The position numbers were made by a program, and so were the translations under genes. Positions 13,371 through 57,208 of a stretch of DNA of 64,000 nt are shown one piece after another. Position 1 is the first letter of the stretch, and each line of letters begins with the position of its first letter. Source of the DNA: an uncultured Gemmatimonadales bacterium (GTDB lineage: Bacteria > Gemmatimonadota > Glassbacteria > GWA2-58-10); assembly GCA_964548275.1 (NCBI GenBank), contig CAZJQI010000008.1, positions 14,286-78,285 on the forward strand, given 5' to 3'. The notes below the pieces were generated by a model, which saw nothing but the letters and a program-made list of their open reading frames with translations, did no database searches and was not told where the DNA came from.

Positions 13371-13388
13371 CCTTTGCGGTGGTTCCAG

Positions 13389-15419
13389 ATGCGCACTAAT
13401 ATCATCCTGCTTCTAGTCTTTATTTCCGTCTCCCTATTCCCGCCAGATCCTGCTTATTCCCAGGCCTCGAGCGGCGTTGATGCCGCCTGGCGCGGGGATA
13501 TGAATGAAAACGGCGAAATCGATATTTTCGACTTGCTGGGCCTTATGCGTCATCTGGTTTCCGGAAACTTTGTATCAGACAAAAAACAGCAAATCGCAAA
13601 CGTTGACAGATCAGCTGACGGCAAGATTACTGTATTCGACCTTATCGCGCTGTTGAAAATCCTCTCCGGCAGGGAGGAACCCCGACCTGTTATATTCTCC
13701 TGCGGCGTTAATCATGTTTGGGCTGTAGGAGACGGGGAAAAGGTATTCCGCGATGATCTCGTACACCCGTGCATGAACTCGAACAGTATCTGGGACGGAG
13801 ACACGATCCGTTTTAAGGGGTTGTATAACGAGGTTCTCGCCTTTCAGGTGATCGTGATTGCAGGTAATTACGGCGCCTTGTCAGTGGAAGTGTCTGCCGA
13901 TTTTCTGGTACACACTGAATCGGGCGAGGTGATTGCCTCTGCGCAAAATCCTCCATACAGCCACGGCGGCTGGTTCGAGATATTCAGCCAGCACTACATT
14001 CATGTCGAGAATCCGACCAATCCCAACTGGTTTTACGGCTCATCTGCCTCGGCCCCTGCGCGCATGACCGGCTGGATACCGGATGCTCTGATCACCCCGG
14101 ATGCCGAACCCGACAAGGGTGGTTTCCCGATTCATATTCCTTCCTCAAAGGTCCAGGGCTTCTGGGTCGACCTCTTCCTTCCCCGCGACACGATAGCTTT
14201 TTCCCCCGGCGTGTACACAGGGAAACTCCGGGTTCTGGAAGAGGGGTGGGAAGTGGCTGCACTGCCGGTCAAGCTCGAGCTTTTGCCCCTTTATCTGCCG
14301 GATGAAAACCACTCCAATGTCTGGCTGTTCAACAGTGGTGTAAAGCTGTATTTCCCTGAATTGGACTCAACCCAGATCGATACGATGCTCAAGCACATGG
14401 CACACCGGCACAGGATCGATCTGGTAGGGGGCTTCCAGCCGCACCGCTCACAGTTCGATCAGGGGATGATGGATGCTTACAAGCCCTACCTTGATGGTAA
14501 CGCGTTTACCTCGCAAGCTGGCTACAAGGGACCCGGCCAGGGAGAGCCGGAGCACCTTTTCCCGATCGGGATGTACGGCAGCGCTGTATTAGGCGATACG
14601 AAAGAACAGGTGCAGGAGCAGTCAGACCTCTGGGTCGACTGGTTCGAGGCGAACGCTCCGCAGGTGCGCTATTTCTGGTACCTGATCGATGAGCCGGGAA
14701 CTGATAAATTCAACTGGGTCGCCGAGCGCGCAGGCTGGATCCACGACAACCCCGGCTCTGGAAAGCGCCTGCCGGTGTTCACCACCAGAGCGTGGACAGC
14801 GGAACTCGACAATGCAATCGACCTCTGGGCCGGCGGCCGCGGCATGGACCTTCAAAAACTGGCCGAACTGAAAGAACAGGGTGAGGATCACTGGTTCTAC
14901 AACGGGTCGCGGCCCCGTTACGGGTCCGTGATCCTGGAAGCAGAGGCGGTGGATTTCCGCATGAACGCCTGGGCCAAGTATATCTACCAGGTCAATACAT
15001 GGTTTCTATGGCACGGGAACCACTGGCGGCACAACAGTCAGGGCCCCAGAGCGCATGAACATCAGAACGTATTCACTGACCCGGTAACCTTTATCAGCGG
15101 GCCGAACACTTTCGGCAACGGGGACGGGATAGTGCTCTATCCGGGCAACGAACCGTTTTATTCTGATGAAAGCCGCGGATTGAACAAGATTTTCGGCTCG
15201 ATCCGGCTGAAAAACATCCGCCGGGGCCAGCAGGATTACGAGATCATGTGGCTGGCAGAGCAGAAAGCAGGCCGCGAGCAGGTGCTGGAGATCGTGAAGA
15301 AAGTGGTGCCCAGGGCGTTCAGCGAGGTGGACATGGATGAGGCCGTTCCCTGGTCCCAGCGAGGAGACGATTACGACGCAGCCAGGCTGGAGCTGCTGGA
15401 GTTGATATCAGAGCAGTAA
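13389..15419 (+). CDS. Secreted protein with N-terminal dockerin-like double EF-hand module; large C-terminal domain of unknown (possibly carbohydrate-active) function
   Basis: Signal peptide MRTNIILLLVFISVSLF. DMNENGEIDIFDLLGLMRHL and ANVDRSADGKITVFDLIALLKIL form a duplicated dockerin-type calcium-binding loop plus helix. The remaining ~580 aa have no motif I can assign. Confidence 0.6.
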   Translation: MRTNIILLLVFISVSLFPPDPAYSQASSGVDAAWRGDMNENGEIDIFDLLGLMRHLVSGNFVSDKKQQIANVDRSADGKITVFDLIALLKILSGREEPRPVIFSCGVNHVWAVGDGEKVFRDDLVHPCMNSNSIWDGDTIRFKGLYNEVLAFQVIVIAGNYGALSVEVSADFLVHTESGEVIASAQNPPYSHGGWFEIFSQHYIHVENPTNPNWFYGSSASAPARMTGWIPDALITPDAEPDKGGFPIHIPSSKVQGFWVDLFLPRDTIAFSPGVYTGKLRVLEEGWEVAALPVKLELLPLYLPDENHSNVWLFNSGVKLYFPELDSTQIDTMLKHMAHRHRIDLVGGFQPHRSQFDQGMMDAYKPYLDGNAFTSQAGYKGPGQGEPEHLFPIGMYGSAVLGDTKEQVQEQSDLWVDWFEANAPQVRYFWYLIDEPGTDKFNWVAERAGWIHDNPGSGKRLPVFTTRAWTAELDNAIDLWAGGRGMDLQKLAELKEQGEDHWFYNGSRPRYGSVILEAEAVDFRMNAWAKYIYQVNTWFLWHGNHWRHNSQGPRAHEHQNVFTDPVTFISGPNTFGNGDGIVLYPGNEPFYSDESRGLNKIFGSIRLKNIRRGQQDYEIMWLAEQKAGREQVLEIVKKVVPRAFSEVDMDEAVPWSQRGDDYDAARLELLELISEQ

Positions 15420-19562: not shown

Positions 19563-21872
19563 ATGACCAAAAGCAGTCTGGCAGTGGCTTTAATGTTGAT
19601 TTTTGCGCACTTGAACGATCTCTGCGGCATTGACCTTCATCTCTATGAGGAAAGTTATCTGGACAGAGTATCGGAGCCGGTTACCTGCGGCGTTCCTTTG
19701 GCCCGGGGATACTGCAATTCGGCGGACGAGCTGGTTTTGAAAATCGGTGGTCAGCCTGTGCCGGTTGAAATCCGCGAGGTCAGCCGCTGGCCGGACGGTT
19801 CTTTGCGATGGGTTCATCTTGATTTCCAGGTAAGTGTGCCCGAAGGACGCCTGATTACTGCCTCGCTGGACAAGGGAAAGAGAGCCCCGGTGGATTCAAA
19901 GCTTAAAGTTGAAAAAACACCGCGTGCGATAACTGTCTCCACCGGCAGGCTCAAAGTCGAGGTCTCCCGGAGAAATTTCAATGTCTTCAATCGCATTCAG
20001 GTTCCCAGCGAGGACGGCCGGTATTTCAGGACACTGGTCAATCCTCACAGGCGCGGACTGGTCGCCTGGGCCGGCAAACAGGAATTCCTTGCTGCTAATG
20101 ACACCCTCTCGGTCGTGGAAATCGAAAGCAGCGGGCCAATACGCCTTGTGCTGCGCGCCGAGGGAAACTTTCAGGACACCAACGGCTTGAAACTGTTCCA
20201 CTATATCTGCCGGCTTTATTTCTACAGCGATTCCCCTGTTGTCCGTCTTGCTTTCACTTTTGAAAACCGTGACCCGGTGATCGAAAACAAGGTAGCTCTT
20301 CAGGGCCTCCACGTGGAAATCCCGACCACGATCAGGGGCGCAGGCGGAGCCTATGATATCGGAAAGCCGGGGGGAGATGTTCAGGGAATTTTCCCAAGCA
20401 GGGTTTCAATGGCCTGGGCCCTTGTCAATTCATCCTCCCTGTCCAGTTTTGGAACGGAATCCTTCTTTGAAATCGCCGGCAGCCCGAAAGAGGAAAAATC
20501 CTCTGAACTGGGCTGGATCAGTCTGGGCTCATCCAAAGGCATGGTGGGGGTGGGACTGCGCTACTTCTGGCAGATGTGGCCCTCGATCCTGGAGGTGAAT
20601 GCCAGCGGCCTGATAAGGGCGGGTCTCTTTCCGCAAAGGTTAAACCGCTCGATCGATATCTATTCTGGGGTGGCCCGCACGCATTACCTGCGCTTTGCTT
20701 TTCTTGGCGTGGGCGATCCGGAACGTATAGGCTCCCTGGTGAACTCCTGCCAGCAGCCTCTTCTTGCACTGGCTTCAACCAGCTACTACTGCCAGGAAAC
20801 ACGTGCCTTCGGAAACATCTTCGACCGCGATCTCAGAAATTACCCGAAAGAAAACAGAAAGATTGTAGAACACGTTGATGGCGAGCTGGATTATGGCTAC
20901 AGTCACATGATGAATATGATTGATGAGCGCACCGTGAACGGGGTTACCCGCGACAGTTACGGGTTCCTGAACTGGGGAGACGGATTGCATTATGCATGGG
21001 TGCCCGGAGAGGATAGTGAGTTGAACCTTTCCTGGAACCACCACTATTACGACCTTCCCCATATGAGCTGTATCGAGTTCGCCAGAACCGGCTGTCTCTG
21101 CTGGCTGGATTGTTTCCTTCCGCAAGCCCATCACCTGATGGACGTGCATATGGTTCATTTCGATCCTGAAAATGAGCTTAACGGCCACAATCGCTACTGC
21201 CCGAGTACCGACCATGTTCGCCTGGACCCCAAGGATGCCTCGGATTACCAGACTGCAAAAGTCTACGTTCACCCAAACCAGAACCATTCGAAAACACAGG
21301 GCATGTTCGACCGGTACCTGCTTACAGGTGATGAAAGAAGCTTTGAGGTTGCTCTTAAGGCGCTCGAATTTGCGGCTTCATTCGGCGCTTACGGTGATTT
21401 CAAACAGCCCAGGGGCGCCGCCCACCAGGTGATGACACTGGTTTATGGCTACCGAATAACCGGAGATAAGCGTTACCTCGATATTGCCCGGAGTTCATTC
21501 GAAAAATGGTGGGAGCACTTTCAAACAACCGAAACGAAATTCACCAGGCGCTTTTTCCAGGTCGGGCTGCTGCTCGAGGCCTTTATTGATTTGTACGAGG
21601 AAACCGGGGACAGGAGAATTATCGAATTTACCAGGCAGGCAGTCGATTGGATGCTGGAGAACAGACCGAATGACAGGTTCCCCAACATGAGCCTGGCTCT
21701 GGGTTTCCTGTCTGCCAGGCCCAAGGAGCCGCGCTACACCGAAATGTTGAAAGAGTATCTTATGCTCTGGAAAGGTGTTCAGGGAAATCCGTTCAAGGAT
21801 TTCGCCATGCACGGCAGGAATGTCGCCAGGGCGCTTTATTATCTGTCAAACGAGGCCAGAGGCTCGAAATGA
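19563..21872 (+). CDS. Secreted protein, unassigned family, paralog 1 of a tandem triplet (N-terminal beta-rich region, C-terminal alpha-helical region)
   Basis: 769 aa with signal peptide. Blocks shared with paralogs 2 and 3: EPVTCGVP, VSRWPDGSLRWVHLDFQ, LFHYICRLYF, ENRDPVIENKVALQGLHVEIPT, WGDG(L/M)HYAW, WNHHYYDLPHM, HHLMDVHMVHF, NRYCP.TDHV, HSKTQG(M/L)FDRY..TGDER, FKQPRGAA.QV. Confidence 0.7.
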   Translation: MTKSSLAVALMLIFAHLNDLCGIDLHLYEESYLDRVSEPVTCGVPLARGYCNSADELVLKIGGQPVPVEIREVSRWPDGSLRWVHLDFQVSVPEGRLITASLDKGKRAPVDSKLKVEKTPRAITVSTGRLKVEVSRRNFNVFNRIQVPSEDGRYFRTLVNPHRRGLVAWAGKQEFLAANDTLSVVEIESSGPIRLVLRAEGNFQDTNGLKLFHYICRLYFYSDSPVVRLAFTFENRDPVIENKVALQGLHVEIPTTIRGAGGAYDIGKPGGDVQGIFPSRVSMAWALVNSSSLSSFGTESFFEIAGSPKEEKSSELGWISLGSSKGMVGVGLRYFWQMWPSILEVNASGLIRAGLFPQRLNRSIDIYSGVARTHYLRFAFLGVGDPERIGSLVNSCQQPLLALASTSYYCQETRAFGNIFDRDLRNYPKENRKIVEHVDGELDYGYSHMMNMIDERTVNGVTRDSYGFLNWGDGLHYAWVPGEDSELNLSWNHHYYDLPHMSCIEFARTGCLCWLDCFLPQAHHLMDVHMVHFDPENELNGHNRYCPSTDHVRLDPKDASDYQTAKVYVHPNQNHSKTQGMFDRYLLTGDERSFEVALKALEFAASFGAYGDFKQPRGAAHQVMTLVYGYRITGDKRYLDIARSSFEKWWEHFQTTETKFTRRFFQVGLLLEAFIDLYEETGDRRIIEFTRQAVDWMLENRPNDRFPNMSLALGFLSARPKEPRYTEMLKEYLMLWKGVQGNPFKDFAMHGRNVARALYYLSNEARGSK

Positions 21873-22107: not shown

Positions 22108-24417
22108 ATGTTAAAAAACTTGCTTGCCGTTTTAATAGCCCTGTTCATTACTGTTTCATCCGTTGGAGCGGTAAAACTCTCAGTTGAGGAAAGAAGCGGG
22201 ATTGTGCGGGTAAGCGAGCCTGTCACCTGCGGTGTGCCTTTTGCCGAAAGTGCTGTTTATTCGGAAGACAGCCTCGTTTTGCTGAGAGGCACCTTGCCTG
22301 TGCCGGTTGAAATCCGCCAGGTCAGCCGCTGGCCGGACGGCTCTTTGCGCTGGGTTCACCTGGATTTTCAGGCCAGTGCTGGGCCATGGGAAAACGTCCG
22401 CTTTTCTCTGGAAAAAGGTCCCGCTCAGCCTTTAGCTTCCAGTCTCGAGGTAAAGCGTACTGCCCGAGGCTTCACAGTCGAAACCGGAAAGATAAAGGTC
22501 GAGGTGAAAAGGCGGGGTTTCAATGTATTTAACCGCGTCCTGCTTGCCGGGGAAAACGGAGATTTTGTGAAGGAACTTGTTGCTCCGCACAGTCGCGGAC
22601 TGGCCGCCTGGGCCGGTGGAGAGGAGTATCTTTCCGCCAATGACCAGGCCTCGACACTCCGGGTTGAAAGCTCAGGCCTCATGCGCGTGGTGCTGCGGGC
22701 GCAAGGAGAGTTGAAAAACAGATCGGGGAACAAGCTTTTTCATTATATCTGCCGGTTATATTTCTACAACGGCTCTCCAGTTGTCCGCCTTGTCGTGACT
22801 GTGGAAAACAGGAATCCGGTAATCGAAAACAAGGTCGCTCTTCAGGGACTTCACGTGGAAATTCCCACAACAATGGTTGAAAGCGGCACGGTTTTTCATA
22901 TCGGCGGCCGGGATAGACATCTGGAGGGCCGGTTTGCCGGTTACGGTTCCAATGCTTTTATTCTGGCGCCCTCCTCGGAGCGCTACACTTACGGTGGGGT
23001 GGTGGAAAGTTGGCCCGGCGGCAATGCCAAGACCGAAAGCTCGGACCGGCTGGGCTGGATTGGTATTGCAAGCTCTCGCGGCGCGGTGGCGGTTGGCTTG
23101 CGCGACTTCTGGCAGATGCATCCTTCAAGCCTGGAAGCAGCCTCGGATCAGGGCCTGCTGCTGGTCGGCCTTTTCCCCCTGCGGCTCGGCAGGTCGATTG
23201 ATATCTATTCCGGAGTGTCTCGTACCCACTACCTGCGCTTTGCCTTCACCAGCCAAAACGATCCCGAGTTGCTGTGCTCGCTGACCAGAGCCTGCCAGAA
23301 ACCTCTTACTGCTGTGGCCTCACCGGCCTATTACTGCCGGAAAAGCCGAGCTTTCGGCAAACTGGTAGAGCGAGAATTGTCTCTGTTCCCGGAAGAACAC
23401 CACGCGCTGGTTACCACGGTGCAGAGAGAAACGGACGGGGGTCTGGCCAATCTGCTCTCGCTGGTGGAATCCCGCACTAAAAACGGCGTGACAGTGGAGG
23501 GTTACGGCTATCTGGACTGGGGAGACGGAATGCATCATATCTGGGTGCCTGGAGTGAAAGACCCGCATAACATCTCCTGGAATGGTCATTACTATGATCT
23601 TCCTCATACCTGCTGCCTGGAATACGTGAGCACAGGCAACTGGCGGTACTACGACTTTTTCCTCAGCCGGGCCCAGCATTTGATGGATGTCCATATCGCG
23701 CATTTCGAGCCAGGTAACAAGCTTAACGGTGCCAACCGCTACTGCCCGCCCACCGACCATGTGAGAATCGATCCCAGAAGGCGGGGAGATTTCACCTCCG
23801 CCAGGGTTTACGTATCAAACTCGACCAATCACCACAAGACCCAGGGGCTTTTCGACCGTTTTTATCTTACCGGCGATGAACGGGCGCTCGAGGTGGCCCT
23901 GAAGGCTGTGGAATTCGCCAATTCTTTCGGGGCCTACCGGGATTTCAAACAGCCGCGCGGGGCTGGTTTCCAGGTCCTATCCCTGCTCGAGGCCTACCGT
24001 TACAGCGGCGAAGCCAGATACCTGGAAACCGCGAAAATGACATTCGAGGCCTGGTGGGAGCATTTCAGCACCACGGAGACCAAGTTCACCCGGGGCTATT
24101 TCATGGTCGGGTACCTGCTGGAGGCTTTCGTGGACTACTACGAGATTACCGGGGACAGCCGGGCTGTGGAATTCATCCGCCAGGCCGTGGACTGGATGAG
24201 CGCCAGCCGCCCGAACGACTTATTCTCCAACATGACACTGAGTATCGCCTTTCTGGCGCACCAGACCGGGGAGACCGAATATATCGAACTGGCGAAAAAA
24301 CACCTTTCCCGCTGGCACGGTGTCTGGGAAAACGCTTTCAAGGATTTCGGCCTTCACGGCAGGGGCATTGCCAGGGCGCTCTACTATTTTTCCGATCAAG
24401 CCAGAGGAAGCGATTGA
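22108..24417 (+). CDS. Secreted protein, unassigned family, paralog 2 of tandem triplet
   Basis: 769 aa with signal peptide. Colinear with paralog 1 along its entire length (by eye roughly 55-65% identical) and carries the same conserved blocks. Confidence 0.7.
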   Translation: MLKNLLAVLIALFITVSSVGAVKLSVEERSGIVRVSEPVTCGVPFAESAVYSEDSLVLLRGTLPVPVEIRQVSRWPDGSLRWVHLDFQASAGPWENVRFSLEKGPAQPLASSLEVKRTARGFTVETGKIKVEVKRRGFNVFNRVLLAGENGDFVKELVAPHSRGLAAWAGGEEYLSANDQASTLRVESSGLMRVVLRAQGELKNRSGNKLFHYICRLYFYNGSPVVRLVVTVENRNPVIENKVALQGLHVEIPTTMVESGTVFHIGGRDRHLEGRFAGYGSNAFILAPSSERYTYGGVVESWPGGNAKTESSDRLGWIGIASSRGAVAVGLRDFWQMHPSSLEAASDQGLLLVGLFPLRLGRSIDIYSGVSRTHYLRFAFTSQNDPELLCSLTRACQKPLTAVASPAYYCRKSRAFGKLVERELSLFPEEHHALVTTVQRETDGGLANLLSLVESRTKNGVTVEGYGYLDWGDGMHHIWVPGVKDPHNISWNGHYYDLPHTCCLEYVSTGNWRYYDFFLSRAQHLMDVHIAHFEPGNKLNGANRYCPPTDHVRIDPRRRGDFTSARVYVSNSTNHHKTQGLFDRFYLTGDERALEVALKAVEFANSFGAYRDFKQPRGAGFQVLSLLEAYRYSGEARYLETAKMTFEAWWEHFSTTETKFTRGYFMVGYLLEAFVDYYEITGDSRAVEFIRQAVDWMSASRPNDLFSNMTLSIAFLAHQTGETEYIELAKKHLSRWHGVWENAFKDFGLHGRGIARALYYFSDQARGSD

Positions 24418-24537: not shown

Positions 24538-27486
24538 ATGAGAAACAGGCTGCTGCAGGCAGGTGTTTTGTTATTTTCACTGGCATCGGTTTTACATGCC
24601 ATAGAACTGACAGTGGCTGAACGCAGCGGAATCGGCCGGATAAACGAGTCGGTCACCTGCGGCGTTCCCCTGCCCGTGAGCTGGGTAAATTCAACTGATG
24701 AACTGGTGCTAAGGGTTTTCGGAGAAATCGTGCCTTGCGAATTCAGGGAAGTCGCTCACTGGCCAGACGGCTCTATTCGTTGGGTGCATCTGGATTTCCA
24801 GGCATCCGTGGAGGCCAATGCAAGGCTCTCCCTCTGGCTGGACAAGGGAACTCCGGCACAGTTTGATTCCAGGCTCGAGGTGGTTGAAGAACAGGGCAAG
24901 GTAACAGTATCTACCGGGAGAATCAGGGCCGAGGTTCTCGCGGCTGGATTTAACGTGTTCAACAGTGTCTGGATCGATACCGGATCGGATGGAGATTACG
25001 ACAAACAGCTGGTAAGCACGCACGACAGGGGTCTGGTCATGTGGGCAGAAGGCCAGGAGTACCTGAGTTCAGCTGACCAGAATACAGAATTAACTGTGGA
25101 AAGCCAGGGAACCATGCGGGTGGTGCTCAAAGCAGAGGGTGATCTCAAGAGCACCACCGGCGCAACCGGATTCCATTTTATCTGCCGCCTGTACTTTTTC
25201 AATAACTCCCCCCTTGTTCGCCTGGCTTACACCTTCGAAAACCGCAGCCCTTATCTGGAGGGCCGTGAGGACATGGTGACTCTGGAAGGCTTGCACGTGG
25301 AGCTGCCCACAGCAGATTCGCATTCCGAGTTCTTCCTCGGACTGCCTGATCAGGATCTGAAAGCGACATCTTCTGAGGCAGGAGGCAATCAAATCTATCT
25401 CGGCACCAGCGCTACGAACCAGTTGATCTACTACCATGGAGAAAGCCAGGACAACGTTGGTAATCCCAAGGCGCTGAAAACAGACCGCATCGGCTGGATC
25501 GGGATGGATGTTGTTGAAAGCGGGCAAGTAAAATCACTGGTTGGCATGGGCCTGCAGGATTTCTGGCAGATGCATCCAAGCACGCTGGAGGTGGATGCCG
25601 AAACCGGATTGATTACCGCCGGGCTTATCCCGTATAGACTTGACACTCCCATCGATATTTACTCCGGGGTGGCCCGCACCCATTATCTGCGTTTCGTCTT
25701 TTTGCACGAGGAGGAAGCCTCCAACCTGGGAAAGATGCTCGCCGCCTGCCAGAAACCCTTGCTTGCAATAGCCGAGCCTGAATATTACTGCAGGGACAGC
25801 AATACGTTCGGTAAGATAATGGAACGAAATCCCGCACTCTATCCGCCCGAGCACCTGGAGGAGGTTCAGCGCGTTGAGAGAGAGCTCGATCTGGGCCTGG
25901 AGGACCAGCTGCGCAAGCTCGACAACCGCACGAAAAACGATGTAACCTGGGAGAGTTACGGCTTTCTCAACTGGGGTGACGGCATGCACTACGCCTGGGA
26001 ACCCGGGGTTCACGTTGCGCGAAATATCGCCTGGAACCACCACTATTATGACCTTCCGCACATGAGCAGTGTCGAGTTCGTGCGCACAGGGGATTACCGC
26101 TGGCTGGATTATTTTCTCTCCCGTGCCCACCACCTGATGGATGTGCACATGGTTCATTTCGGTCCAGGCAAATACCTGAACGGCGCCAACCGCTACTGCC
26201 CTCCAACCGACCACGTGCGCAGAGATCCCACAGATGATAGCGATTACACTACTGCTCCGGTTTACGTATCACCTTACACCAATCACCACAAGACTCAAGG
26301 GTTGTTCGAGCGCTGGTATTTCACCGGGGATGAACGCAGCCTGGACTGCGCTCTCCGGGGAGCTGAATTCGCCAGATCGTTCGGCGGGTATCCTGATTAC
26401 AAGCAGCCGCGCGGCGCGGCTTTCCAGGTCCTGACCCTGCTTGCCGCCTACCAGTGCACCGGCGACGATAAATACCTCCTGACTGCAAAAACCACTTTCG
26501 ACACCTGGTACAGCTATTTCCGCAGCACGAGCATCAAGTTCACCCAGGGATATTTCATGGTGGGATTTCTGCTCGAGGCTTTTATCGACTACTATGAAAT
26601 CAGCGGCGACAGCAATGTCGTAGATTTTGTCAAGCAAGCAGTGGACTGGATGCGCGCCAACAGGCCAGAAGAAAAATATTCGAACATGGCGCACGGTATC
26701 GGTTTCCTGGCCGCACAACTCGAAGACCCTTCCTATACGACATTACAAAAAGAATACCTCACAAGCTGGTACGGCACCTGGTCAAACGCCTACAAGGATT
26801 TCGGCCTGAACGGCAGGAGTCTCGCCCGCGCACTGTATTACCTTTCTTATGAAGGACAGGGTTACGAACTGCGGATGACCGGAGACTACGATGATGACGA
26901 AGCCCTGACAATCAGCGACCTGGTCGCACTGCTGGTCAAAGGGATGCAGGATGAGTCAAACCCGGAGATAGATTTCAACCGGGACGGCAAGTACTCTATC
27001 ATGGATGCACTCGCCCTGCTGATATATATCCGCGGGCACAGCGCAGGTGTTTCACTGGCCGCAGCAGGCAGGGATCTGAACTCGAAATTCCGGCTCACCC
27101 CGGTAGAGCTGGCTGAGCTGTTGGAACAACTGGTCAAGCTGGATCTTACTGAAAGTGAATGGGAAGCGTTAAATTCGCTACTAGACCGTGAGCAACTGCC
27201 CAGGGCGTTCACCCTGTCGCAGAACCGGCCGAACCCGTTCAACCCCACCACGACTATCAGTTTCGGCATCCCCCAGGGGCGTGCTCTGGAAGTGAAGCTG
27301 GTTGTGTATAACCTTAGAGCGATGCTGGTAAAGGTGCTTGTGGAAGAGGTAAAAGAGCCGGGATATTACAGTGTGCTCTGGGACGGCACTGATAACCAGG
27401 GAAAAGCGATTGGGTCCGGGGTGTATTTTTACCGCCTCAGTGCAGGCGACTTTTCTGCTGTGCGCAAAATGGTTCTGATGAAATAA
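24538..27486 (+). CDS. Secreted protein, paralog 3 of tandem triplet, with added C-terminal dockerin-like module and T9SS C-terminal sorting domain
   Basis: First ~780 aa are colinear with paralogs 1 and 2. A dockerin-like stretch follows (DYDDDEALTISDLVALLVKGM...DFNRDGKYSIMDALALLIYIRG). The last ~85 aa (PNPFNPTTTISFGIPQGRALEVKLVVYNLRAMLVKVL...GVYFYRLSAGDFSAVRKMVLMK) match the T9SS / Por secretion tail pattern. Confidence 0.75.
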   Translation: MRNRLLQAGVLLFSLASVLHAIELTVAERSGIGRINESVTCGVPLPVSWVNSTDELVLRVFGEIVPCEFREVAHWPDGSIRWVHLDFQASVEANARLSLWLDKGTPAQFDSRLEVVEEQGKVTVSTGRIRAEVLAAGFNVFNSVWIDTGSDGDYDKQLVSTHDRGLVMWAEGQEYLSSADQNTELTVESQGTMRVVLKAEGDLKSTTGATGFHFICRLYFFNNSPLVRLAYTFENRSPYLEGREDMVTLEGLHVELPTADSHSEFFLGLPDQDLKATSSEAGGNQIYLGTSATNQLIYYHGESQDNVGNPKALKTDRIGWIGMDVVESGQVKSLVGMGLQDFWQMHPSTLEVDAETGLITAGLIPYRLDTPIDIYSGVARTHYLRFVFLHEEEASNLGKMLAACQKPLLAIAEPEYYCRDSNTFGKIMERNPALYPPEHLEEVQRVERELDLGLEDQLRKLDNRTKNDVTWESYGFLNWGDGMHYAWEPGVHVARNIAWNHHYYDLPHMSSVEFVRTGDYRWLDYFLSRAHHLMDVHMVHFGPGKYLNGANRYCPPTDHVRRDPTDDSDYTTAPVYVSPYTNHHKTQGLFERWYFTGDERSLDCALRGAEFARSFGGYPDYKQPRGAAFQVLTLLAAYQCTGDDKYLLTAKTTFDTWYSYFRSTSIKFTQGYFMVGFLLEAFIDYYEISGDSNVVDFVKQAVDWMRANRPEEKYSNMAHGIGFLAAQLEDPSYTTLQKEYLTSWYGTWSNAYKDFGLNGRSLARALYYLSYEGQGYELRMTGDYDDDEALTISDLVALLVKGMQDESNPEIDFNRDGKYSIMDALALLIYIRGHSAGVSLAAAGRDLNSKFRLTPVELAELLEQLVKLDLTESEWEALNSLLDREQLPRAFTLSQNRPNPFNPTTTISFGIPQGRALEVKLVVYNLRAMLVKVLVEEVKEPGYYSVLWDGTDNQGKAIGSGVYFYRLSAGDFSAVRKMVLMK

Positions 27487-27523: not shown

Positions 27524-29668
27524 ATGAAAAAGTTTCCGGGTTTTCAAAAATTACTTTTTCTCCTCGCTTTCTTTTCCATTTTCTACGTCAGATTCTCCTT
27601 CGCCGTAGAGGTATCCGAAGGACACCCACGCCTGTTTTTCCGGGACAGCGCCTGGGGAGAACGCTCGATCACCACGGAACAACTCAGGCAGCGGGCCAAT
27701 GACCCGCGCTACGCGGCCTATGTGAACAGGCTCACTTACAGCTCCTGCAACGTGGCTCTTAAAGCGATTCTGTTTGACGATACTCAGGCTGCCCGGGAAT
27801 GCATCTCCATGATGGAAAGCAACTTCGATTTCGACGGCACTACAACCGACGGCGAGCTGTTGATGTGGCGGGCCATGGCTTTCGACTGGCTTTACAACCA
27901 TCCGGATTTCACCGAGACTCACAAACAGAATGTGATCCGGAAACTCGCTCAGGGGGCGAGCTGGTGCAGGAGTGAGTATATCGGACAGGGTCCGCACGTT
28001 TTTCATACACGTATGTATGCGTTCGCTCTCGGTACAGCAATAGCGGGCCTTGCGCTCAAGGGCCACCACCAGGATGCGGATTTTTACATCGACTGGGCTG
28101 ACTCGATATTCACTCACCACCTTTTCCCTGCCCGCCACCTCCAGGGCGGCTCTGTGCACAACAGCCTGGCCTACGGCCGCAGGTACGTCATGTGGCATTG
28201 CGGCCATTTCATGAGTGCCTGGTATTCAGCCACCGGTCAGGACAAATGGAAAACGGTCCGCGAGCAGCAGGATGACTGGGCCTGGCGCGAGGCGGAATTT
28301 ATCATGTATGGGAGGCAGCCGGACGGGCTGCTGGTGCGTTACGGCGACTGTTTCAGACGCACCTCCGAGCGGTTCTCTTTCCGGGTGATCGGCGAGCGGG
28401 CCTTTGCCTGCAGCAAGCCGATAGGGATGAATTACCTCCACTACCTGTTCCAGACCCAGGCGAATATGACGGACAACCGCGTGGTGGAGGAAGGCAACGC
28501 CTATCATGTTCTTCTCTATTGGGACGCAGACGATCCAGGCCGCTCGTTTAAAACTCTGCCCACCAGAACCCTGTTCAGTCCCCAGGGCACCGGCATGGTT
28601 TTCTGGCGCAGCGGCTGGGGCGAGGACGATACGTTTATCTTTTTCAAGTGCGGCAACTATTTCGGCAACCACGGCCATTTTGACCAGGGCCACCTCGAGG
28701 TTTTCCATCGCGCACCGCTGTTGATCGAGGGCGGAGCCTACGAGGGCGATTTCGACAGCAATTACAGGCTTAACTATTACCGCAAAACGGTCGCCCATAA
28801 CTTGATCCTGGCGGTAAACCCCGCCCTGGCTCAGGATGAGGGAGGACAAAGGATTTTCAGCAACCAGGGCGAACCATCAGTGGAAAGCTACCTGGGTAAC
28901 CCGATTAACGAAACCGGAGATATTATTGATTACCGGGACCAGGGGAACTGGTGTTACGTTTCAGGGAGTTTCGGCAGCGCTTACGATAACAGTAGGATAA
29001 TTAGGGCCGTGCGCGAGGTGGCCTGGATCGGCGAGCGCTACCTGGTGGTTGTGGACAATATCAAACTGGGCAGCAGTTCTTTTCTGCCAAAGGTGATCTG
29101 GCATTATACGGTCACCCCCGTAATCGAGGGAAACCGATTTACAGTCACCGACCGCGGCGGCAGGGCGGTAGTCACCGTGCTGGCGCCCCCGGAGGCGACA
29201 ATCGACACAATTCAGGCTTACCGGATCGGCACCGCATATTACCCTCCGCCTGATCCGCGTCCCTCGATAGGGGTGGGGCGAACCGAAATCAGCGTGCCCC
29301 AGCCGGGAGTGGCCGATTACACCTTTGTCCAGGTAATCGACGTGGCCGATGAAGGGATCGCCCCCGGTAGCCTGGCTTTCGAATCAGATGAAACCGAGGG
29401 AACTCTGATTGTGACTTTGCCGGTAGGCACTTTCCGCCTGAGCGGCAGCCCGCTCGAACGCACGGCAGTCGCGTTCGAGGCTGCCGCGCTGGAACCGAGA
29501 GGCGATTTCAGCGGCAATGGCACCGTGGGTATCGAAGATCTGGTGAGCCTGCTTCTGCGCGCCCTTGAAAACACCAACGATCCTATGCTGGATTTCAACC
29601 AGGACGGACACTATTCGATCCTGGACGCCATTGCGCTGCTGCTATATATCCACTCGCAGGGGAGCTAG
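27524..29668 (+). CDS. Heparinase II/III-like polysaccharide lyase with C-terminal dockerin-like module
   Basis: Signal peptide. N-terminal alpha-helical (alpha/alpha toroid-like) region. GNYFGNHGHFDQGHLEVFHRAPLLIEGG matches the heparinase II/III C-terminal GH.H.D signature. C-terminus RGDFSGNGTVGIEDLVSLLLRAL...DFNQDGHYSILDAIALLLYI is a dockerin-type duplicated loop-helix. Confidence 0.75.
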   Translation: MKKFPGFQKLLFLLAFFSIFYVRFSFAVEVSEGHPRLFFRDSAWGERSITTEQLRQRANDPRYAAYVNRLTYSSCNVALKAILFDDTQAARECISMMESNFDFDGTTTDGELLMWRAMAFDWLYNHPDFTETHKQNVIRKLAQGASWCRSEYIGQGPHVFHTRMYAFALGTAIAGLALKGHHQDADFYIDWADSIFTHHLFPARHLQGGSVHNSLAYGRRYVMWHCGHFMSAWYSATGQDKWKTVREQQDDWAWREAEFIMYGRQPDGLLVRYGDCFRRTSERFSFRVIGERAFACSKPIGMNYLHYLFQTQANMTDNRVVEEGNAYHVLLYWDADDPGRSFKTLPTRTLFSPQGTGMVFWRSGWGEDDTFIFFKCGNYFGNHGHFDQGHLEVFHRAPLLIEGGAYEGDFDSNYRLNYYRKTVAHNLILAVNPALAQDEGGQRIFSNQGEPSVESYLGNPINETGDIIDYRDQGNWCYVSGSFGSAYDNSRIIRAVREVAWIGERYLVVVDNIKLGSSSFLPKVIWHYTVTPVIEGNRFTVTDRGGRAVVTVLAPPEATIDTIQAYRIGTAYYPPPDPRPSIGVGRTEISVPQPGVADYTFVQVIDVADEGIAPGSLAFESDETEGTLIVTLPVGTFRLSGSPLERTAVAFEAAALEPRGDFSGNGTVGIEDLVSLLLRALENTNDPMLDFNQDGHYSILDAIALLLYIHSQGS

Positions 29669-52340: not shown

Positions 52341-52412
52341 AAAAAGGGAAAGGTTATTCTTGTTTGACTAAAGGGGAGCGGGCCTGTGAGCCGCTTCCCT
52401 TTTTTCTTTTTT

Positions 52413-52500
52413 AGTCCAAAAGAATCGCTCGAATCTTTACCCCGGAGTAATCCTTCCAGAAGATCAGTCTTTAATCCCCCCTTTGGAAAAGACTCGTTCT
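52413..52500. repeat. Possible degenerate copy D of the dispersed intergenic element
   Basis: agtccaaaagaatcgctcgaatctttacc resembles the left-end motif (about 20/31). Followed by taatccttccagaag and tttaatcccccctttggaaaagac, which resemble internal units. Confidence 0.3.
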
Positions 52501-52909
52501 CTGCACTAGCTTTGGAAAGGTGATTATAATTGGTGCAAAGGTTGCCAATCACAGTATTTGCTTCTCCTATCAGATGACGGGGGAAACTTTCAGCATGAAG
52601 ATGTTTGCTGAAATCCTGCCGCCGATTTATCGATTGCGGTGTTATGCAGCTTAAAATGAGGGGAAAAACATTTATTTTTTTTTGCTATGATCAATATACC
52701 ACTTGACACTTTGAAAGAAAACAATTAATTATAATTAAAGAAGTTTAAAATCCTTCCGATTCCGGGCAGGAGGACATAATATTGCGATAAAACAAAAGAA
52801 AGCCAAACCAAGGCATAACAGTTTTAATATAGAGAATAGCGGTTTATATCCCCCCTCCTATTAATCCCTTATAATCTATTATTCGAAGTAATCTGCGCAG
52901 GAGGGCTCT

Positions 52910-54085
52910 ATGACCTGTCTTAAGATCAGAATACTGGCTTTATCTGCTGTTTATGGGATCACGCTGCTTGTTACAGAGGCTTTTTGCCAGGGAATCGATA
53001 GAGATGAGTACAGCGGAATAGATAATGACATCAATTCTGTTGTGATAACAGGCAAATCAAACCTGAAGACTGCCGAATTCCTAGAGATTCCTGCCTCCGC
53101 CCGTGGAATAGCACTGGGGAGCGCCTTCAGCGCAGTTGGCGATGATGTCAATTCCATATGGTGGAACCCGGCTGGACTGTCTTATCTAACCAGGATCGAG
53201 ACCTCGGTTTCGCACTTGAATTACAATCACCAATTCGGTATGGATTACACCTTCGCCGCCGCGGGAATTCCGATAATCAGAAACAAACTCACGCTCGGTG
53301 CTTTTTTCGGCTATTTTGACTACCGGGATTTTGAAATCACATCTATATCTCAACCCACCGGTACGGGGGAAATAGCCAAATTCTTCGATTATCAGGCCGG
53401 TGGCTCTTTGTCCTACCGTATTTTAAAAAATCTATCTTTGGGTTTCAGCCTCAAGCGAGTGCATCTTGACATGGGCGCCGCATACAAAGCCAGTGCGCTG
53501 GCTTTAGACGCAGGAGCCTTATACCGCTACAGCCATTCCAATCATCAGCTAAGCCTTTCCATTTCAGTACAAAACTACGGGACCGATTTTTCCAGCGAAA
53601 GAGTGATAGACAATGACATCAATCTGGATACAACCAGGGTAAGCCGCTATGGATTTTATAAAACTGTTACCTATGAGTTGCCTAGTTCGGTAACACTCGG
53701 GTTCGGCTACCAATATCAATTTGCTCAGAACTACAACATTCTGACTTCCTTCGAGTACTGCAAACCCAAAGAATTTTTAAACTCATATCAAAGTCTTAAG
53801 TCGCTTGGCATGGAATTCAATTGGCCGGTGTCAAAATTTCTGAAAGCCTCTGTCCGCGCAGGACGGCTTACCCTGGAAGGCCGCCGGCAGGCAGTATATG
53901 TGGAACAATTAAAGTATATGTTTCTAGGGGAAGGGGAATATACCCTGAAAAACCGGACCGAATCCCGATTAGGCTGCGGCTTGGATTTCACTGTCGCCAG
54001 CAGGTATGTCAGACTCGATTATGCGAGGAACATGAGGCAGGGCATACCGAACCAGGATTTTCTCACCCTGAGTGTAGGAATTTGA
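52910..54085 (+). CDS. porV: PorV-like (LptO / FadL-like) outer-membrane beta-barrel protein, probable T9SS component
   Basis: 391 aa with signal peptide. EFLEIPASARGIALGSAFSAVGDDVNSIWWNPAGLS matches the conserved PorV/UPF0164 N-terminal block. Remainder shows alternating beta-strand patterns. Confidence 0.7.
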   Translation: MTCLKIRILALSAVYGITLLVTEAFCQGIDRDEYSGIDNDINSVVITGKSNLKTAEFLEIPASARGIALGSAFSAVGDDVNSIWWNPAGLSYLTRIETSVSHLNYNHQFGMDYTFAAAGIPIIRNKLTLGAFFGYFDYRDFEITSISQPTGTGEIAKFFDYQAGGSLSYRILKNLSLGFSLKRVHLDMGAAYKASALALDAGALYRYSHSNHQLSLSISVQNYGTDFSSERVIDNDINLDTTRVSRYGFYKTVTYELPSSVTLGFGYQYQFAQNYNILTSFEYCKPKEFLNSYQSLKSLGMEFNWPVSKFLKASVRAGRLTLEGRRQAVYVEQLKYMFLGEGEYTLKNRTESRLGCGLDFTVASRYVRLDYARNMRQGIPNQDFLTLSVGI

Positions 54086-54109
54086 GGCCTGGATGTGGAG
54101 GCGAGCTCT

Positions 54110-54871
54110 GTGAGCTGTCTCAAGATTAGAATACTGGCTTTATCTGCTGTTTGCGGGATCACGCTGCTTGTATCCGGCGGCTGCCAGAGCGACAATCCGC
54201 TCGCACCCGGGAAAGGAGCGATTCTGCAGGATTACCTGCCGCTGCAGGGCAACAGCCAGGCTTACAGATTCACCTTGTTTTACTCATCGTGGCATGGACC
54301 GGATTCCTATTACTCCCATAACATAAACGGCATTTGCCAGATAATTATCATAAGAGGCCCGGACAATGCATCCTATTTTCACCTGATATCGACTGCTATA
54401 TTCAACGTTGAATTAGACTCCATTTTTAAACAACCGTATTATCCCGAATACGAAACTACCGTGAATAAAGATTACAGTATCTCCCATTCCAGTGATTTAT
54501 ACCTGTCCGCGGATTCCCTGTGGTACGAGGTGGACGATTCAGATACCTCGGATGCCGTGACCCGCAGGTTTGCAATGAATTACTCCAAAGACACGGGAGG
54601 CAGCGTCCTGGACCTGGCCCCGTTCCTTCCGCCCGGCTGGGAAATCAAACTATTTGGGCACAGTCCCGAAATATTGTCGAATAATACAGCCGAGACGAAA
54701 GGAGACACCCTTATTTATACTTTCGATGTAAGGCACAGACCTACAGATGTATATGAAGGTACAGCAAAGTTTCTGAAAGGCGCAGGACTCTTCTCCATCC
54801 AGTATACATTTTCGTGGGGCGAGGGGACGCTCTCAATTACACGCACGACTATCTCCTACACGAAAATCTGA
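54110..54871 (+). CDS. Lipoprotein of unknown function; shares its RBS and signal-peptide DNA with porV
   Basis: GTG 54110 preceded by GGAGG. Signal SCLKIRILALSAVCGITLLVSGGC is encoded by a 67 bp stretch that is 62/67 identical to the porV 5' end. Mature protein has no recognisable domain. Confidence 0.5.
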   Translation: MSCLKIRILALSAVCGITLLVSGGCQSDNPLAPGKGAILQDYLPLQGNSQAYRFTLFYSSWHGPDSYYSHNINGICQIIIIRGPDNASYFHLISTAIFNVELDSIFKQPYYPEYETTVNKDYSISHSSDLYLSADSLWYEVDDSDTSDAVTRRFAMNYSKDTGGSVLDLAPFLPPGWEIKLFGHSPEILSNNTAETKGDTLIYTFDVRHRPTDVYEGTAKFLKGAGLFSIQYTFSWGEGTLSITRTTISYTKI

Positions 54872-55023
54872 TCCGGACGCAAATACCTCGTATAACAGCA
54901 AAGGGGCTGTCCCAAAAGGGCAGTCCCTTTTTATTTTGAGTCTGATAAAGTAATTTTCCTTGCGGTAAAAATGGGTCAGATTTTGTCCGGGAGCTTAGAC
55001 AGCATTTTACACCGCGGGGCTGT

Positions 55024-57009
55024 TCATTTCTTCCTTAACTGCAGCTTCCAGGTATCCTTCAGCGGGGCATTATCGCCTGCTCGCAAGACTATCCGGTTCA
55101 GGTTTTCTCCCCAGGCCGAGCTTAGCCTGCTGTCATCGAGTTCTATCTTTTCCACTGCCGGTGTGAGCTTATCAGCAGGATAGTTCAGCTCGAGTTTGAA
55201 CCCCTCTCCCTCTGCACTCTTTTCACTCAGGGTGATCAGTCCTTTTTTCTCCAGGTTCACTTCACAGGGAGTGAGCAGGCTGAGCATCAGCTCTCCGTCG
55301 CGTTTGGCAAGCCTGTATGATTCCACCAGCCGCACCTCTTTACCTCGCACGAGGCGCACCGCGCGTTTCCATGAAATGACTCCTGCGCTTTCCGGGTATG
55401 CACCGGCAATATCGCTTGAAAGTTCGGCATAGGAGTTTTTCTCTTTATAGCGGACATCCCTGGCAGCGAAAGTCCTGCCCTCTTTCTGCATCACTCCGTT
55501 GATCGTGGGCAGGTTGTGGAAAGCCGACTGCATGGTCCATATTTCGTAGCGTTTATCGCTGAACGTTTTGCGAGTGTATGTGCCTACCCCGGCATCGATA
55601 ATCGCCGGTCGGCCGTCCACATAGACTGTGAAATTGCCCACATCGTTATGGTTGTGGTTTTCGGCATTGTGGCCTCCCTTGGCCGCAAGGTACAACCCCT
55701 CAGAGGTGCCTGCTCTGGAGCGTGCGGCCATGACCTGGATCCCGTCCAGCCAGACATCCCGTACATGCGGCTGAAAACCCTCAGCCGAGATCAGCTCGCG
55801 AAGGTTGGACAGTGCCGGCAAGGCCCGGCCTATACTTCCTGAGACACCCGGGTCTTTTGCCATCTGCTTTTTTGCCGCGTAAGCCCCCAGTGCGGCCATA
55901 TTTTTGTCGCCGATCCTTTTGCCAAACCTGTAGACCAGGTCACCGGCAATTCCCACCTTTGCCGGGGCGTCTGCGAAATTGATAAAATAACGCTCGTCTA
56001 TGTGCGTGCGGTAAATAAAACGTCCCATTTGCTGTATCAGTGGCTTGTTGTATATGTCGATCTCGCTGTTCGTGGCACTTCGCAGCAGCTCCAGGCAGTC
56101 AAAGAGCGAGGCAGCAGCCCGGCCCCAGTAGCTCGGGCCCTCATCGCAGCCGCCGTCCGGATGATAGGAAGAGATAAATAGATCGAGGCTCCGCAGAACT
56201 TTTTCCACAGCAGCGACGCGCCTGTTATTATCACCCTCGAGCAGAAAGTTGGCTGTGAGCCAGTTGGAATTGCACCACGGGTTCCAGTTGTTTATATGCG
56301 AACCAGAAAAACCCATCCACCAGAAATCATCCCTTTCAAGACAGGGCCGCAGCACTCGCACACTGGCCTCGCGCAGCAGCCGGGTGTTGATCAGCGGGGA
56401 AATCTCATCGAGCTGCGGGCCGATAAGGTAATGAATCCAGGCGAGAAGAGCCACGGTCTCGGCACTGAAAAGGTCCACAACCGGTTCTTCCACATCGGGA
56501 AGGCCGGAGCTGGCTCGCTGTGCGTTAATATGCGCCGGAATCACCCAGCTCGACTCTTCCAGAATCGCCCACACACCGTTTACTATCTCATCCATAAAAC
56601 GCCCCTTCGCCTCCATACACTCTGCCAGAACGAGATTTGCAAGCCGGTTTCTCCTCTCAAAATACGGCTCCTCGTACCTGCTACGGTTGCCGTTTATCGA
56701 GAACTCCAGGTAGAGGGTGGCAGGCAGCACGGGCCACTTTTCCCCGAGAACCTGTTCCGCCCTGGCGAGATGTACCCGGCGGGTTTGCTCGGGCAGCGAG
56801 TTCCAGAAATCCCGCTCTGCAAGGGTAGCAAAAGGATGCCATTCGGAGTGGGGCAGGAGAACTTCTCGAAGGGTTTCTATCGGGTACTGGGAACTCAGGC
56901 TGGGCTTGGATTGGCCGGGATAGGCAGGAAGCAGCTGAAAATAAGCGAGAAAGGGGAATAGAAACGCATTGACACACAATACCCTCCGGAGTTTTTTAGA
57001 GCTGAACAT
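55024..57009 (-). CDS. Heparinase II/III-like polysaccharide lyase (second copy)
   Basis: SD AAGGAAGG before ATG 57009, signal peptide. Alpha-helical N-domain. GGHNAENHNHNDVGNFTVYVDGRPAIIDAGVGTY matches the heparinase II/III GH.H.D signature. Confidence 0.7.
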   Translation of the reverse strand: MFSSKKLRRVLCVNAFLFPFLAYFQLLPAYPGQSKPSLSSQYPIETLREVLLPHSEWHPFATLAERDFWNSLPEQTRRVHLARAEQVLGEKWPVLPATLYLEFSINGNRSRYEEPYFERRNRLANLVLAECMEAKGRFMDEIVNGVWAILEESSWVIPAHINAQRASSGLPDVEEPVVDLFSAETVALLAWIHYLIGPQLDEISPLINTRLLREASVRVLRPCLERDDFWWMGFSGSHINNWNPWCNSNWLTANFLLEGDNNRRVAAVEKVLRSLDLFISSYHPDGGCDEGPSYWGRAAASLFDCLELLRSATNSEIDIYNKPLIQQMGRFIYRTHIDERYFINFADAPAKVGIAGDLVYRFGKRIGDKNMAALGAYAAKKQMAKDPGVSGSIGRALPALSNLRELISAEGFQPHVRDVWLDGIQVMAARSRAGTSEGLYLAAKGGHNAENHNHNDVGNFTVYVDGRPAIIDAGVGTYTRKTFSDKRYEIWTMQSAFHNLPTINGVMQKEGRTFAARDVRYKEKNSYAELSSDIAGAYPESAGVISWKRAVRLVRGKEVRLVESYRLAKRDGELMLSLLTPCEVNLEKKGLITLSEKSAEGEGFKLELNYPADKLTPAVEKIELDDSRLSSAWGENLNRIVLRAGDNAPLKDTWKLQLRKK

Positions 57010-57208
57010 CTCGACCTTCCTTGCTAAATGATTGTCCAGGCTGATACAGGCATCTTTTATCAATCAAGCTCATCAACAGATTATGCCTTTTGGAAACTAA
57101 GATAACAGGGAAGAAAATATACAAAGCAACTAACCCGGATTATTAATGAAACCCGGATCTTGACATGGCGGATCACTTATTTTCACATTTTTATCAGCCA
57201 CCGAGGGA

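Follow-up and report, generated by a model that had tools for sequence, protein, structure and literature searches.

The DNA analyzed here, a stretch of 64,000 nucleotides (nt) that is referred to as the window (contig CAZJQI010000008.1, positions 14,286 to 78,285), belongs to a Candidatus Glassbacteria bacterium, i.e., to a lineage of the Fibrobacterota-Chlorobiota-Bacteroidota (FCB) group that is treated by GTDB as a class of Gemmatimonadota (PMC11316326). The window contains a glycan-utilization cluster, comprising genes for a GH123-like and an RGL11-like protein, an SSF symporter, three paralogous enzymes (paralogs 1 to 3), and a heparinase-like protein (Table 1). In pairwise alignments, amino acids (aa) 1-775 of paralog 3 are 53% and 51% identical to the two 769-aa paralogs, and beyond residue 775 the protein runs on for 207 aa past the alignment with both. 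This extension is a three-part cassette typical of the lineage: a type-I-like dockerin, a spacer of about 60 residues with two helices, and a type-A C-terminal domain (CTD) of the kind that a type IX secretion system (T9SS) recognizes. An earlier note on this DNA, made from its letters and open reading frames (ORFs), had given paralog 3 exactly the same start and end (24538-27486) and had read its extension as a dockerin-type duplicated calcium-binding loop-helix followed by a canonical T9SS secretion tail. Both readings are borne out by family profiles and by related copies of the cassette, and for the tail also by a structural model, although neither module reaches its curated cut-off.

The enzyme body that the three paralogs have in common exceeds the Pfam cut-offs (in brackets) in paralog 3 for PF19501 with 32.2 bits (22.1), PF21345 with 53.1 bits (23.5), and PF07944 with 30.2 bits (24.9), and the GH146 structure 6EX6 is a weak sequence match. 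The family is therefore described as PcRGLX-like/GH127-like, and its members as putative polysaccharide-degrading enzymes within the glycan-utilization cluster. The N-terminus of paralog 3, with a basic N-region, a hydrophobic core, and LHA ahead of the likely cleavage point, reads as a Sec signal peptide, and the N-termini of paralogs 1 and 2 are comparable.

Table 1. Paralog 3, its parts, and other genes of the window. Positions are nucleotides of the window.
Feature	Position	Strand	Basis or remark
GH123-like protein with N-terminal dockerin of the second ('IFDLL') subtype (aa 41-95, nt 13494-13658)	13374..15419	+	PF00404, PF13320
Paralog 1, 769 aa, signal peptide, no tail	19563..21872	+	separate old orthogroup
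Paralog 2, 769 aa, signal peptide, no tail	22108..24417	+	separate old orthogroup
Paralog 3, complete ORF	24538..27486	+	982 aa plus stop codon
Predicted Sec signal peptide of paralog 3, MRNRLLQAGVLLFSLASVLHA then IE, aa 1-21	24538..24600	+	read directly from sequence
Enzyme body common to paralogs 1-3: PcRGLX-like N-terminal barrel, central β-sandwich, GH127/GH146-like (α/α)6 domain	24601..26862	+	Pfam
Dockerin module of paralog 3, aa 782-830: loop 1 and helix, short connector, loop 2 and helix	26881..27027	+	family HMM, profile matches, AF2
Spacer with conserved two-helix hairpin, aa 831-893, ending in an LPxAFxLxQN lead-in to the tail	27028..27216	+	family HMM, AF2
Putative T9SS type-A CTD, FlgD-Ig-like β-sandwich, aa 894-982, with PNPFNPTT, GVYFYRL and terminal RKMVLMK	27217..27483	+	HMM, FlgD_ig, AF2, Foldseek
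Heparinase II/III-like neighbor, 714 aa, C-terminal dockerin of the paralog 3 subtype (aa 660-711, nt 29501-29656), no hairpin or CTD	27524..29668	+	
PorV/PorQ-family outer-membrane protein, only T9SS-related machinery gene recognized in the window	52910..54085	+	NF033709

When paralog 3 is checked against the two profiles that the earlier note had proposed, it stays under both cut-offs: PF00404 (Dockerin_1; cut-off 22.9) gives 12.7 bits with the full protein and 14.7 with the tail alone, and TIGR04183 (cut-off 23) gives 19.3. Both modules were therefore tested at the family level, with independent hidden Markov models (HMMs) that were built only from 85 other cassette proteins and run against the 472 ORFs of the window. 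The CTD model scores 129 bits on paralog 3 (E 1e-39), with no other ORF above noise; the dockerin model scores 54 bits (E 3e-16), and the model of the hairpin between them 35.8 bits (E 2e-10), the remaining ORFs being at noise except for two other dockerin-bearing proteins.

Of the motifs in the tail, PNPFNPTT occupies aa 898-905 and GVYFYRL aa 961-967. The sorting-domain family PF18962 is not reached by the tail either (14; cut-off 27), and PF13860 (FlgD_ig, the FlgD Ig-like domain) is passed when the tail is scanned alone (28.6 vs. 27). The TIGR04183 cut-off is passed by seven related cassette tails with 24.5-32.7 bits (at loci L006, L007, L008, L011, and L012, and in proteins P0001 and P0002), and an eighth, that of P0009, stays under it at 20.6. 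A database search with the paralog 3 tail gave 1,342 relatives at E<=1e-3, most of which carry PF18962 and PF13860, and many of which, close ones included, are named 'T9SS type A sorting domain-containing protein' by NCBI; the motifs PNPFNP and GVYFY, as well as a K-M motif close to the C-terminus, hardly vary at all in 70 relatives. An AlphaFold2 (AF2) model of aa 894-982 is a β-sandwich with a predicted local distance difference test score (pLDDT) above 90, and a Foldseek search with this model returns FlgD at the top, together with the CTDs of PorU (6ZA2), PorZ (5M11), and RemZ in the translocon complex (8GL8_D). On these grounds, the tail is accepted as a predicted type-A sorting domain of the FlgD-Ig-like flavor, which is common in non-Bacteroidota FCB lineages.

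The dockerin module is composed of two tandem F-hand repeats, each with a 12-residue calcium loop and a predicted helix after it, in line with the definition of type I dockerins by acidic or amide residues at loop positions 1, 3, 5, and 12 and a helix next to the loop. Loop 1, DYDDDEALTISD, spans aa 783-794 (nt 26884-26919), and loop 2, DFNRDGKYSIMD, aa 812-823 (nt 26971-27006). The sub-threshold score is not peculiar to this protein: all cassette dockerins examined, in counterparts of paralog 3 as well as in unrelated proteins, stay under the PF00404 cut-off at 14-20 bits, and nonetheless match the profile nearly end to end. Moreover, the cassette profile extends to proteins with PF00404 scores of 219-323 bits. 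A five-sequence dockerin profile finds solved dockerins first, headed by that of the Clostridium perfringens µ-toxin (2JNK/2OZN, 7e-5) and followed by 2CCL_B, 1DAQ, 4FL4, 3UL4, and 1OHZ. A 38-sequence profile searched against the PDB has the dockerin of Pseudobacteroides cellulosolvens Cel48 as its best match (2Y3N_B, E 8.4e-7), which covers profile positions 6-61 and thus both repeats; 6KG9, 9QFA (Ruminococcus bromii Amy12), 2JNK, 1DAQ, and 2CCL come next, and calmodulin-type EF-hands give weaker, partial matches. In an AF2 model from a deeper alignment, the module is predicted as loop-helix, short helix, and loop-helix, with three helices in all, at a pLDDT of 87-92. By all these comparisons of sequence, the module of paralog 3 is a divergent dockerin subtype that is homologous to PF00404 members and is not itself a threshold-passing member. 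Another register, which came from searching the PDB with the tail as a single sequence (a marginal match to the CelS dockerin, E 0.09) and which would turn RDLNSKFRLTPVE into a third, degenerate loop-helix, was rejected because this segment is not kept as a loop in the relatives. In most cassette dockerins, one conserved Cys immediately precedes loop 1 and a second directly follows helix 3 (C-DFNGDG … R-x-G-x-C-P), a pair that would fit a disulfide clasp linking the two ends of the module; paralog 3 and its orthogroup lack both of these residues.

Between dockerin and tail lies an element that was absent from the earlier note, the hairpin of about 60 aa, whose helices are modeled at about aa 855-866 and 872-882 (pLDDT about 80). 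Searches of Pfam and the PDB gave no family match for this spacer. A lone helix ahead of the tail is also present in the small dockerin-less CTD proteins P0005, P0007, and P0010, so that in its function the spacer may be a part of the tail.

The combination of a dockerin with a T9SS tail in one protein, which had been put forward as a property of paralog 3, is real and is not peculiar to it. A word-indexed homolog search with dockerin and hairpin only returned nothing, which is a limitation of that method, and was superseded by an exhaustive HMMER search with a dockerin-plus-hairpin profile. At E<=1e-3, this search gave 354 representatives, each standing for a cluster at 50% identity, and 131 remained at E<=1e-10. 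Among the best 150 representatives, dockerin, hairpin, and CTD occur together in 86; the dockerin is bare and C-terminal in 26, close to the N-terminus in 19, repeated in 10 poly-dockerin proteins, and internal or otherwise placed in seven. The last two representatives are P0017, with dockerin and CTD and no hairpin match, and P0286, a fragment with hairpin and CTD and no dockerin match. In the 86 full cassettes, the gap between dockerin and CTD measures 51-73 residues (median 65), and the CTD stands at the very C-terminus (median distance to the last residue 0). The bodies that carry the cassette are unrelated to each other and include β-propellers, arrays of Ig domains, M10 and M6 peptidases, and Omp28, among others. 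Dockerin, hairpin, and CTD thus form a widespread modular cassette and not a one-off of paralog 3. One of its carriers (L012, 9131-10642) is a protein of 504 aa with a CxxCH heme-binding motif (CLNCHD), and the presence of this motif together with the full cassette suggests a surface-displayed cytochrome.

Where source labels are given, cassette proteins come mostly from Candidatus Glassbacteria, in addition to evidently mis-binned 'archaeon' and 'Dehalococcoidales' metagenome-assembled genomes (MAGs). Such MAGs with clear Glassbacteria-type genes are the source of L006 and L011 (DATKXY01, 'archaeon isolate SMAG_U14205') and of P0161 ('Dehalococcoidales bacterium'), and their labels are probably due to mis-binning or mis-classification. 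Two further uses of dockerins were seen among the relatives. P0183, P0223, P0226, P0290, P0307, P0270, and P0236 contain 6-18 tandem Dockerin_1 modules (219-323 bits where scanned), several of them fused to an S8 peptidase; such tandem arrays are uncommon, and they may point to a use of the module that is structural or multivalent. In P0280, P0269, and P0240, a dockerin of the cassette subtype is fused to FGE-sulfatase (SUMF1-like) domains, in the first of these next to four cohesins.

Retention of the cassette follows the history of the paralogs. In a neighbor-joining tree of the enzyme bodies, the three paralogs represent three old orthogroups, and the cassette is limited to that of paralog 3 (the window, L006, L007, and L070, plus the partial L005 and L008), in which all three parts are kept in counterparts at 51-66% identity. 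That the other paralogs might carry either module, a possibility raised in the earlier note, does not hold for paralogs 1 and 2, whose orthogroups are tail-less in all genomes examined. One copy (L009) stops at the dockerin. The heparinase-like neighbor keeps its dockerin in all genomes and has hairpin and CTD only in L006 and L007, its counterparts in L008, L010, and L070 being dockerin-only. Finally, P0017, a protein of 290 aa on a 7.2-kb JGI contig, is 88% identical to paralog 3 over the region that it has in common with the tail, and its dockerin runs directly into the last ~12 residues of the tail (…YIRQHSVSELSTVRKMVLIK), i.e., hairpin and most of the CTD are missing through an in-frame deletion. 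From these three cases it follows that hairpin and CTD are gained or lost as a unit, while the dockerin upstream is retained. If the cassette works as proposed below, the difference between the three paralogs of the window would be explained, as the division into one enzyme at the surface and two in the periplasm would be a conserved one.

Cohesins, the binding partners of dockerins, are present in the lineage. A Pfam cohesin was found in 6 of 70 cassette proteins, and the fusions include one cohesin with a dockerin of the cassette subtype (P0257), three cohesins with such a dockerin (P0302), four cohesins with a dockerin and an FGE domain (P0280), and a cohesin ahead of the full dockerin-hairpin-CTD cassette (P0178 and P0203). 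P0302 lies on a 107.6-kb contig labeled Glassbacteria_GWA2_58_10, which also encodes a giant protein of at least 1,553 aa that ends in cohesin, dockerin, hairpin, and CTD, and P0173, the syntenic counterpart of paralog 3 (gene order BshC, YggS, DivIVA, PNP, SSF, paralog 3, heparinase-like, NUDIX). The two parts of this contig differ in base composition, with a G+C content of 44.1% at the end with the giant protein and the triple cohesin (L069) vs. 51.8% in the syntenic enzyme cluster (L070). Cohesin HMM scans of the contig piece upstream of the window (L074) and of the Glassbacteria loci found none except in L069. Outside the lineage, cohesins are joined to a CTD in small proteins of other FCB candidate phyla, which account for 16 of the 120 nearest CTD relatives. 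P0003, which has the nearest CTD (60% identity), was considered as a cohesin partner from a close relative and rejected, as it has no Pfam cohesin and comes from a 1.6-kb contig of another sample. Of the two options that had been left open for paralog 3, a surface-anchored complex or a non-cohesin role of the dockerin-like fold, the complex is the better supported one, given that the same dockerin subtype is fused to cohesins and that cohesin genes lie on the contig of the counterpart, although none was found in ~70 kb of the present genome.

Further dockerins are encoded close to paralog 3. The heparinase-like neighbor is recognized as HepB-like (81 bits) and scores 65.8 bits with the dockerin HMM, and the GH123-like protein passes PF00404 with 25.0 bits (cut-off 22.9) and scores 24.7 bits with PF13320. 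The same JGI contig encodes, about 4.6-6.4 kb upstream of the first window position (L074, 1-1877), a Peptidase_S8 protein of 1,076 aa that ends in a canonical dockerin (GDGNLDGEVNIFDLIYVLKVL…DLDNNGKINIFDLLEMLKLL) of the 'IFDLL' subtype, as in the GH123-like protein, and has no T9SS tail. Hence, about 35 kb contain four dockerin proteins, which belong to two subtypes and of which only paralog 3 has a sorting domain; the two subtypes could possibly correspond to two cohesin specificities. Further along lie a second heparinase-like gene (55024-57063) and one for an MFS transporter, and a GH2 gene lies just beyond the end of the window, where about 0.7 kb more was covered. The second heparinase-like gene is adjoined by one for a TPR protein with a GWxTD domain (57317-59647, minus strand; TIGR04514, 31.7 bits vs. 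a cut-off of 28).

As to the secretion machinery, Gemmatimonadetes are listed in a review among the FCB phyla that may have a T9SS (PMC11285876). The gene that had been called PorV at 52.9 kb is a member of the PorV/PorQ family (NF033709, 119.5 vs. 90), and it is far under the cut-off of the PorV equivalog (36 vs. 250) as well as that of PorQ (73 vs. 220). The segment in which it lies (52342-55040, 2.7 kb, with the genes 52910-54085 and 54095-54871) is missing from a 99.2%-identical strain (L072). Because the equivalog cut-offs are missed and the segment is absent from this strain, the gene is weak evidence for a T9SS. It has a 78-nt direct repeat in common with the next gene, which encodes 258 aa (52894-52971 and 54094-54171, 87% identity); the repeat spans the ribosome-binding region and the coding sequence of the signal peptide.

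Taken together, the identity of the modules, the modularity of the cassette, its orthogroup-specific retention, and the cohesins of the lineage, all of which were observed here, lead us to favor, as reasonably probable, that paralog 3 is a T9SS-exported cargo with an anchor at the surface, and that its anchor-proximal dockerin joins a cohesin-dockerin network. All three paralogs would enter the periplasm by means of their Sec signal peptides, and paralog 3 alone would then cross the outer membrane through its CTD. By analogy with characterized T9SS cargo, the CTD would be removed and the C-terminus that this creates directly behind the hairpin joined to a surface glycolipid, which would leave the dockerin beside the anchor point, free for the cohesins of partner proteins. 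A complex at the surface could thereby be formed from anchored enzymes, adaptors with cohesin and dockerin, and enzymes that have a dockerin only (the heparinase-like and GH123-like neighbors and the upstream S8 peptidase); paralogs 1 and 2 would stay periplasmic and process imported fragments.

Several observations weigh against this proposal, and part of them would suit another one, namely that the dockerin-like module has no cohesin partner and serves, once the enzyme has been anchored through the T9SS, as a rigid, Ca2+-stabilized spacer or stalk that keeps the enzyme at a distance from the membrane, or binds another ligand. We regard this as possible, if somewhat unlikely. Apart from the sub-threshold scores on PF00404, common to all cassette dockerins, and on TIGR04183, position 6 of loop 1 in paralog 3 is Glu (gaa, nt 26899-26901) where Gly is usual, as in the relatives P0002 and the close variant P0017, and the first calcium site may therefore be weakened or impaired. 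No cohesin was found by HMM scans of the window and 6.4 kb upstream of it, i.e., ~70 kb of this genome, which is why cohesin binding by paralog 3 is proposed by inference. The cohesin-bearing genome with P0173 is only distantly related (51% identity for paralog 3, 68-69% for SSF and PNP). A homolog search with the triple-cohesin P0302 gave itself and two dockerin-only matches, with no close homolog, and a counterpart in the organism of the window could therefore not be shown. Dockerin-bearing clusters are far more numerous than the cohesin-bearing ones seen, the proteins with 6-18 tandem copies suggest that the use is structural in at least some cases, dockerin-only proteins have no evident route to the surface of a two-membrane bacterium, and the T9SS-like gene of the window is strain-variable. 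For the spacer speaks, in addition, the Cys pair around the module in many cassette copies, which suggests a self-contained, clasped unit; reportedly, non-cellulosomal dockerin-like modules without known partners are common. However, the same dockerin subtype stands directly beside cohesins in several architectures, cohesins are encoded on the contig of the counterpart, and the best structural relatives of the profile are all proven cohesin binders. Moreover, the dockerin is kept where hairpin and CTD have been lost, which argues for a role that is independent of spacing an anchor.

The tail, too, could be read differently, as an Ig domain of the FlgD type that serves in adhesion or has a structural function, in a protein that is periplasmic or exported by another route. 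Such a reading could draw on the missed cut-offs of TIGR04183 and PF18962, on FlgD_ig as the best Pfam match and FlgD as the top structural match, and on the fact that the only nearby T9SS-like gene is dispensable in the sister strain. It is very improbable, however, in view of the seven related tails that pass TIGR04183, the position of the CTD at the last residue across the full cassettes, the near invariance of the T9SS-tail motifs, the structural matches to the CTDs of PorU, PorZ, and RemZ, and the name given by NCBI to close relatives. That the tail is a chance resemblance, or an artefact of assembly or fusion, could be argued from the sub-threshold scores on curated models and nothing else; this is already refuted by the fact that four independent assemblies (JGI, ENA, and two Logan runs) yield the identical protein, by the conservation of all three parts in counterparts at 51-66% identity, and by independent HMMs that reach E 1e-39, and its remaining probability is negligible.

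The proposal of a surface-anchored paralog 3 can be extended to the lineage, which we do tentatively, considering the extension rather unlikely as it stands. Glassbacteria would then possess a T9SS-coupled cohesin-dockerin system, made up of a portable cassette for export, anchoring, and docking, of multi-cohesin cross-linkers, and of dockerin-only enzymes that are carried out by cohesin-CTD or cohesin-dockerin-CTD carriers. Cassette-bearing enzymes and adaptors would be held by a covalent anchor, with the dockerin close to the membrane, and multi-cohesin proteins would cross-link them; dockerin-only enzymes would bind a carrier, possibly already in the periplasm, and would pass the T9SS translocon together with it.

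Should the cassette function as proposed, an uncultured class of Gemmatimonadota would have to be added to the groups with cohesin-dockerin assembly, and this assembly would gain a new link to type IX secretion, with the docking module and the anchor signal on one polypeptide and a conserved hairpin between them. The tail, which recurs on dozens of unrelated proteins of the lineage, probably pins enzymes to the surface, where partner proteins can plug in. Were the extended proposal true, it would amount to a cellulosome-like architecture in a two-membrane bacterium, with an inverted logic of anchoring and possibly T9SS export at the level of complexes. For T9SS biology, the question is raised how the dockerin-only enzymes of these bacteria cross the outer membrane. 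A dozen defined cohesin and dockerin sequences are now identified and can be used for binding tests. Since the subtype is systematically under the Pfam cut-off, the dockerin content of FCB candidate lineages is probably under-annotated.

A literature search found no description of dockerins, cohesins, or a T9SS in Glassbacteria, nor of a dockerin and a T9SS tail on one protein. Among the literature searched, the nearest precedent is a purely genomic proposal for 'Ca. Stygibacter' (Cloacimonadota), in which a CTD-anchored cohesin scaffoldin is combined with dockerin enzymes (Williams et al., 2021; PMC8542988). Both cases concern FCB-group bacteria in which cohesin-dockerin assembly would be coupled to a T9SS CTD for surface attachment, and both derive from genomes alone. 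They differ in phylum and in the place of the tail, which is on the cohesin scaffoldin in 'Ca. Stygibacter', with enzymes that have a C-terminal dockerin only, whereas here the enzyme itself carries dockerin, hairpin, and tail. With ordinary T9SS cargo, such as RgpB of Porphyromonas gingivalis or the multi-modular cellulases of 'Ca. Paraporphyromonas polyenzymogenes' (PMC5831590), paralog 3 has in common a signal peptide, a catalytic body, and an Ig-like sorting domain at the extreme C-terminus; such cargo has no dockerin or hairpin ahead of its tail, and the tail of paralog 3 is of the FlgD-Ig-like flavor.

On the side of the dockerin, the closest parallels are the type-I dockerin-cohesin pairs of clostridial cellulosomes (Clostridium thermocellum Xyn10B and CelS; P. 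cellulosolvens Cel48, 2Y3N). There, as here, a duplicated 22-residue calcium-binding loop-helix of about 50-55 residues is attached to glycan-degrading enzymes; the profiles align over both repeats, and multi-cohesin proteins occur in the Glassbacteria lineage as well. However, the Glassbacteria subtype stays under the Pfam cut-off and is often Cys-clasped, and its binding to cohesins is an inference; its host has two membranes, and anchoring would use the T9SS tail instead of SLH modules or sortase, with dockerin and anchor signal adjoining each other on the same polypeptide. Non-cellulosomal pairs, such as the C. perfringens µ-toxin dockerin with the cohesin of a family-84 glycoside hydrolase (2OZN/2JNK) and the R. 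bromii amylosome (9QFA), are among the best profile matches and likewise place dockerins on enzymes that are not cellulases, yet in Gram-positive bacteria in which a T9SS is not involved.

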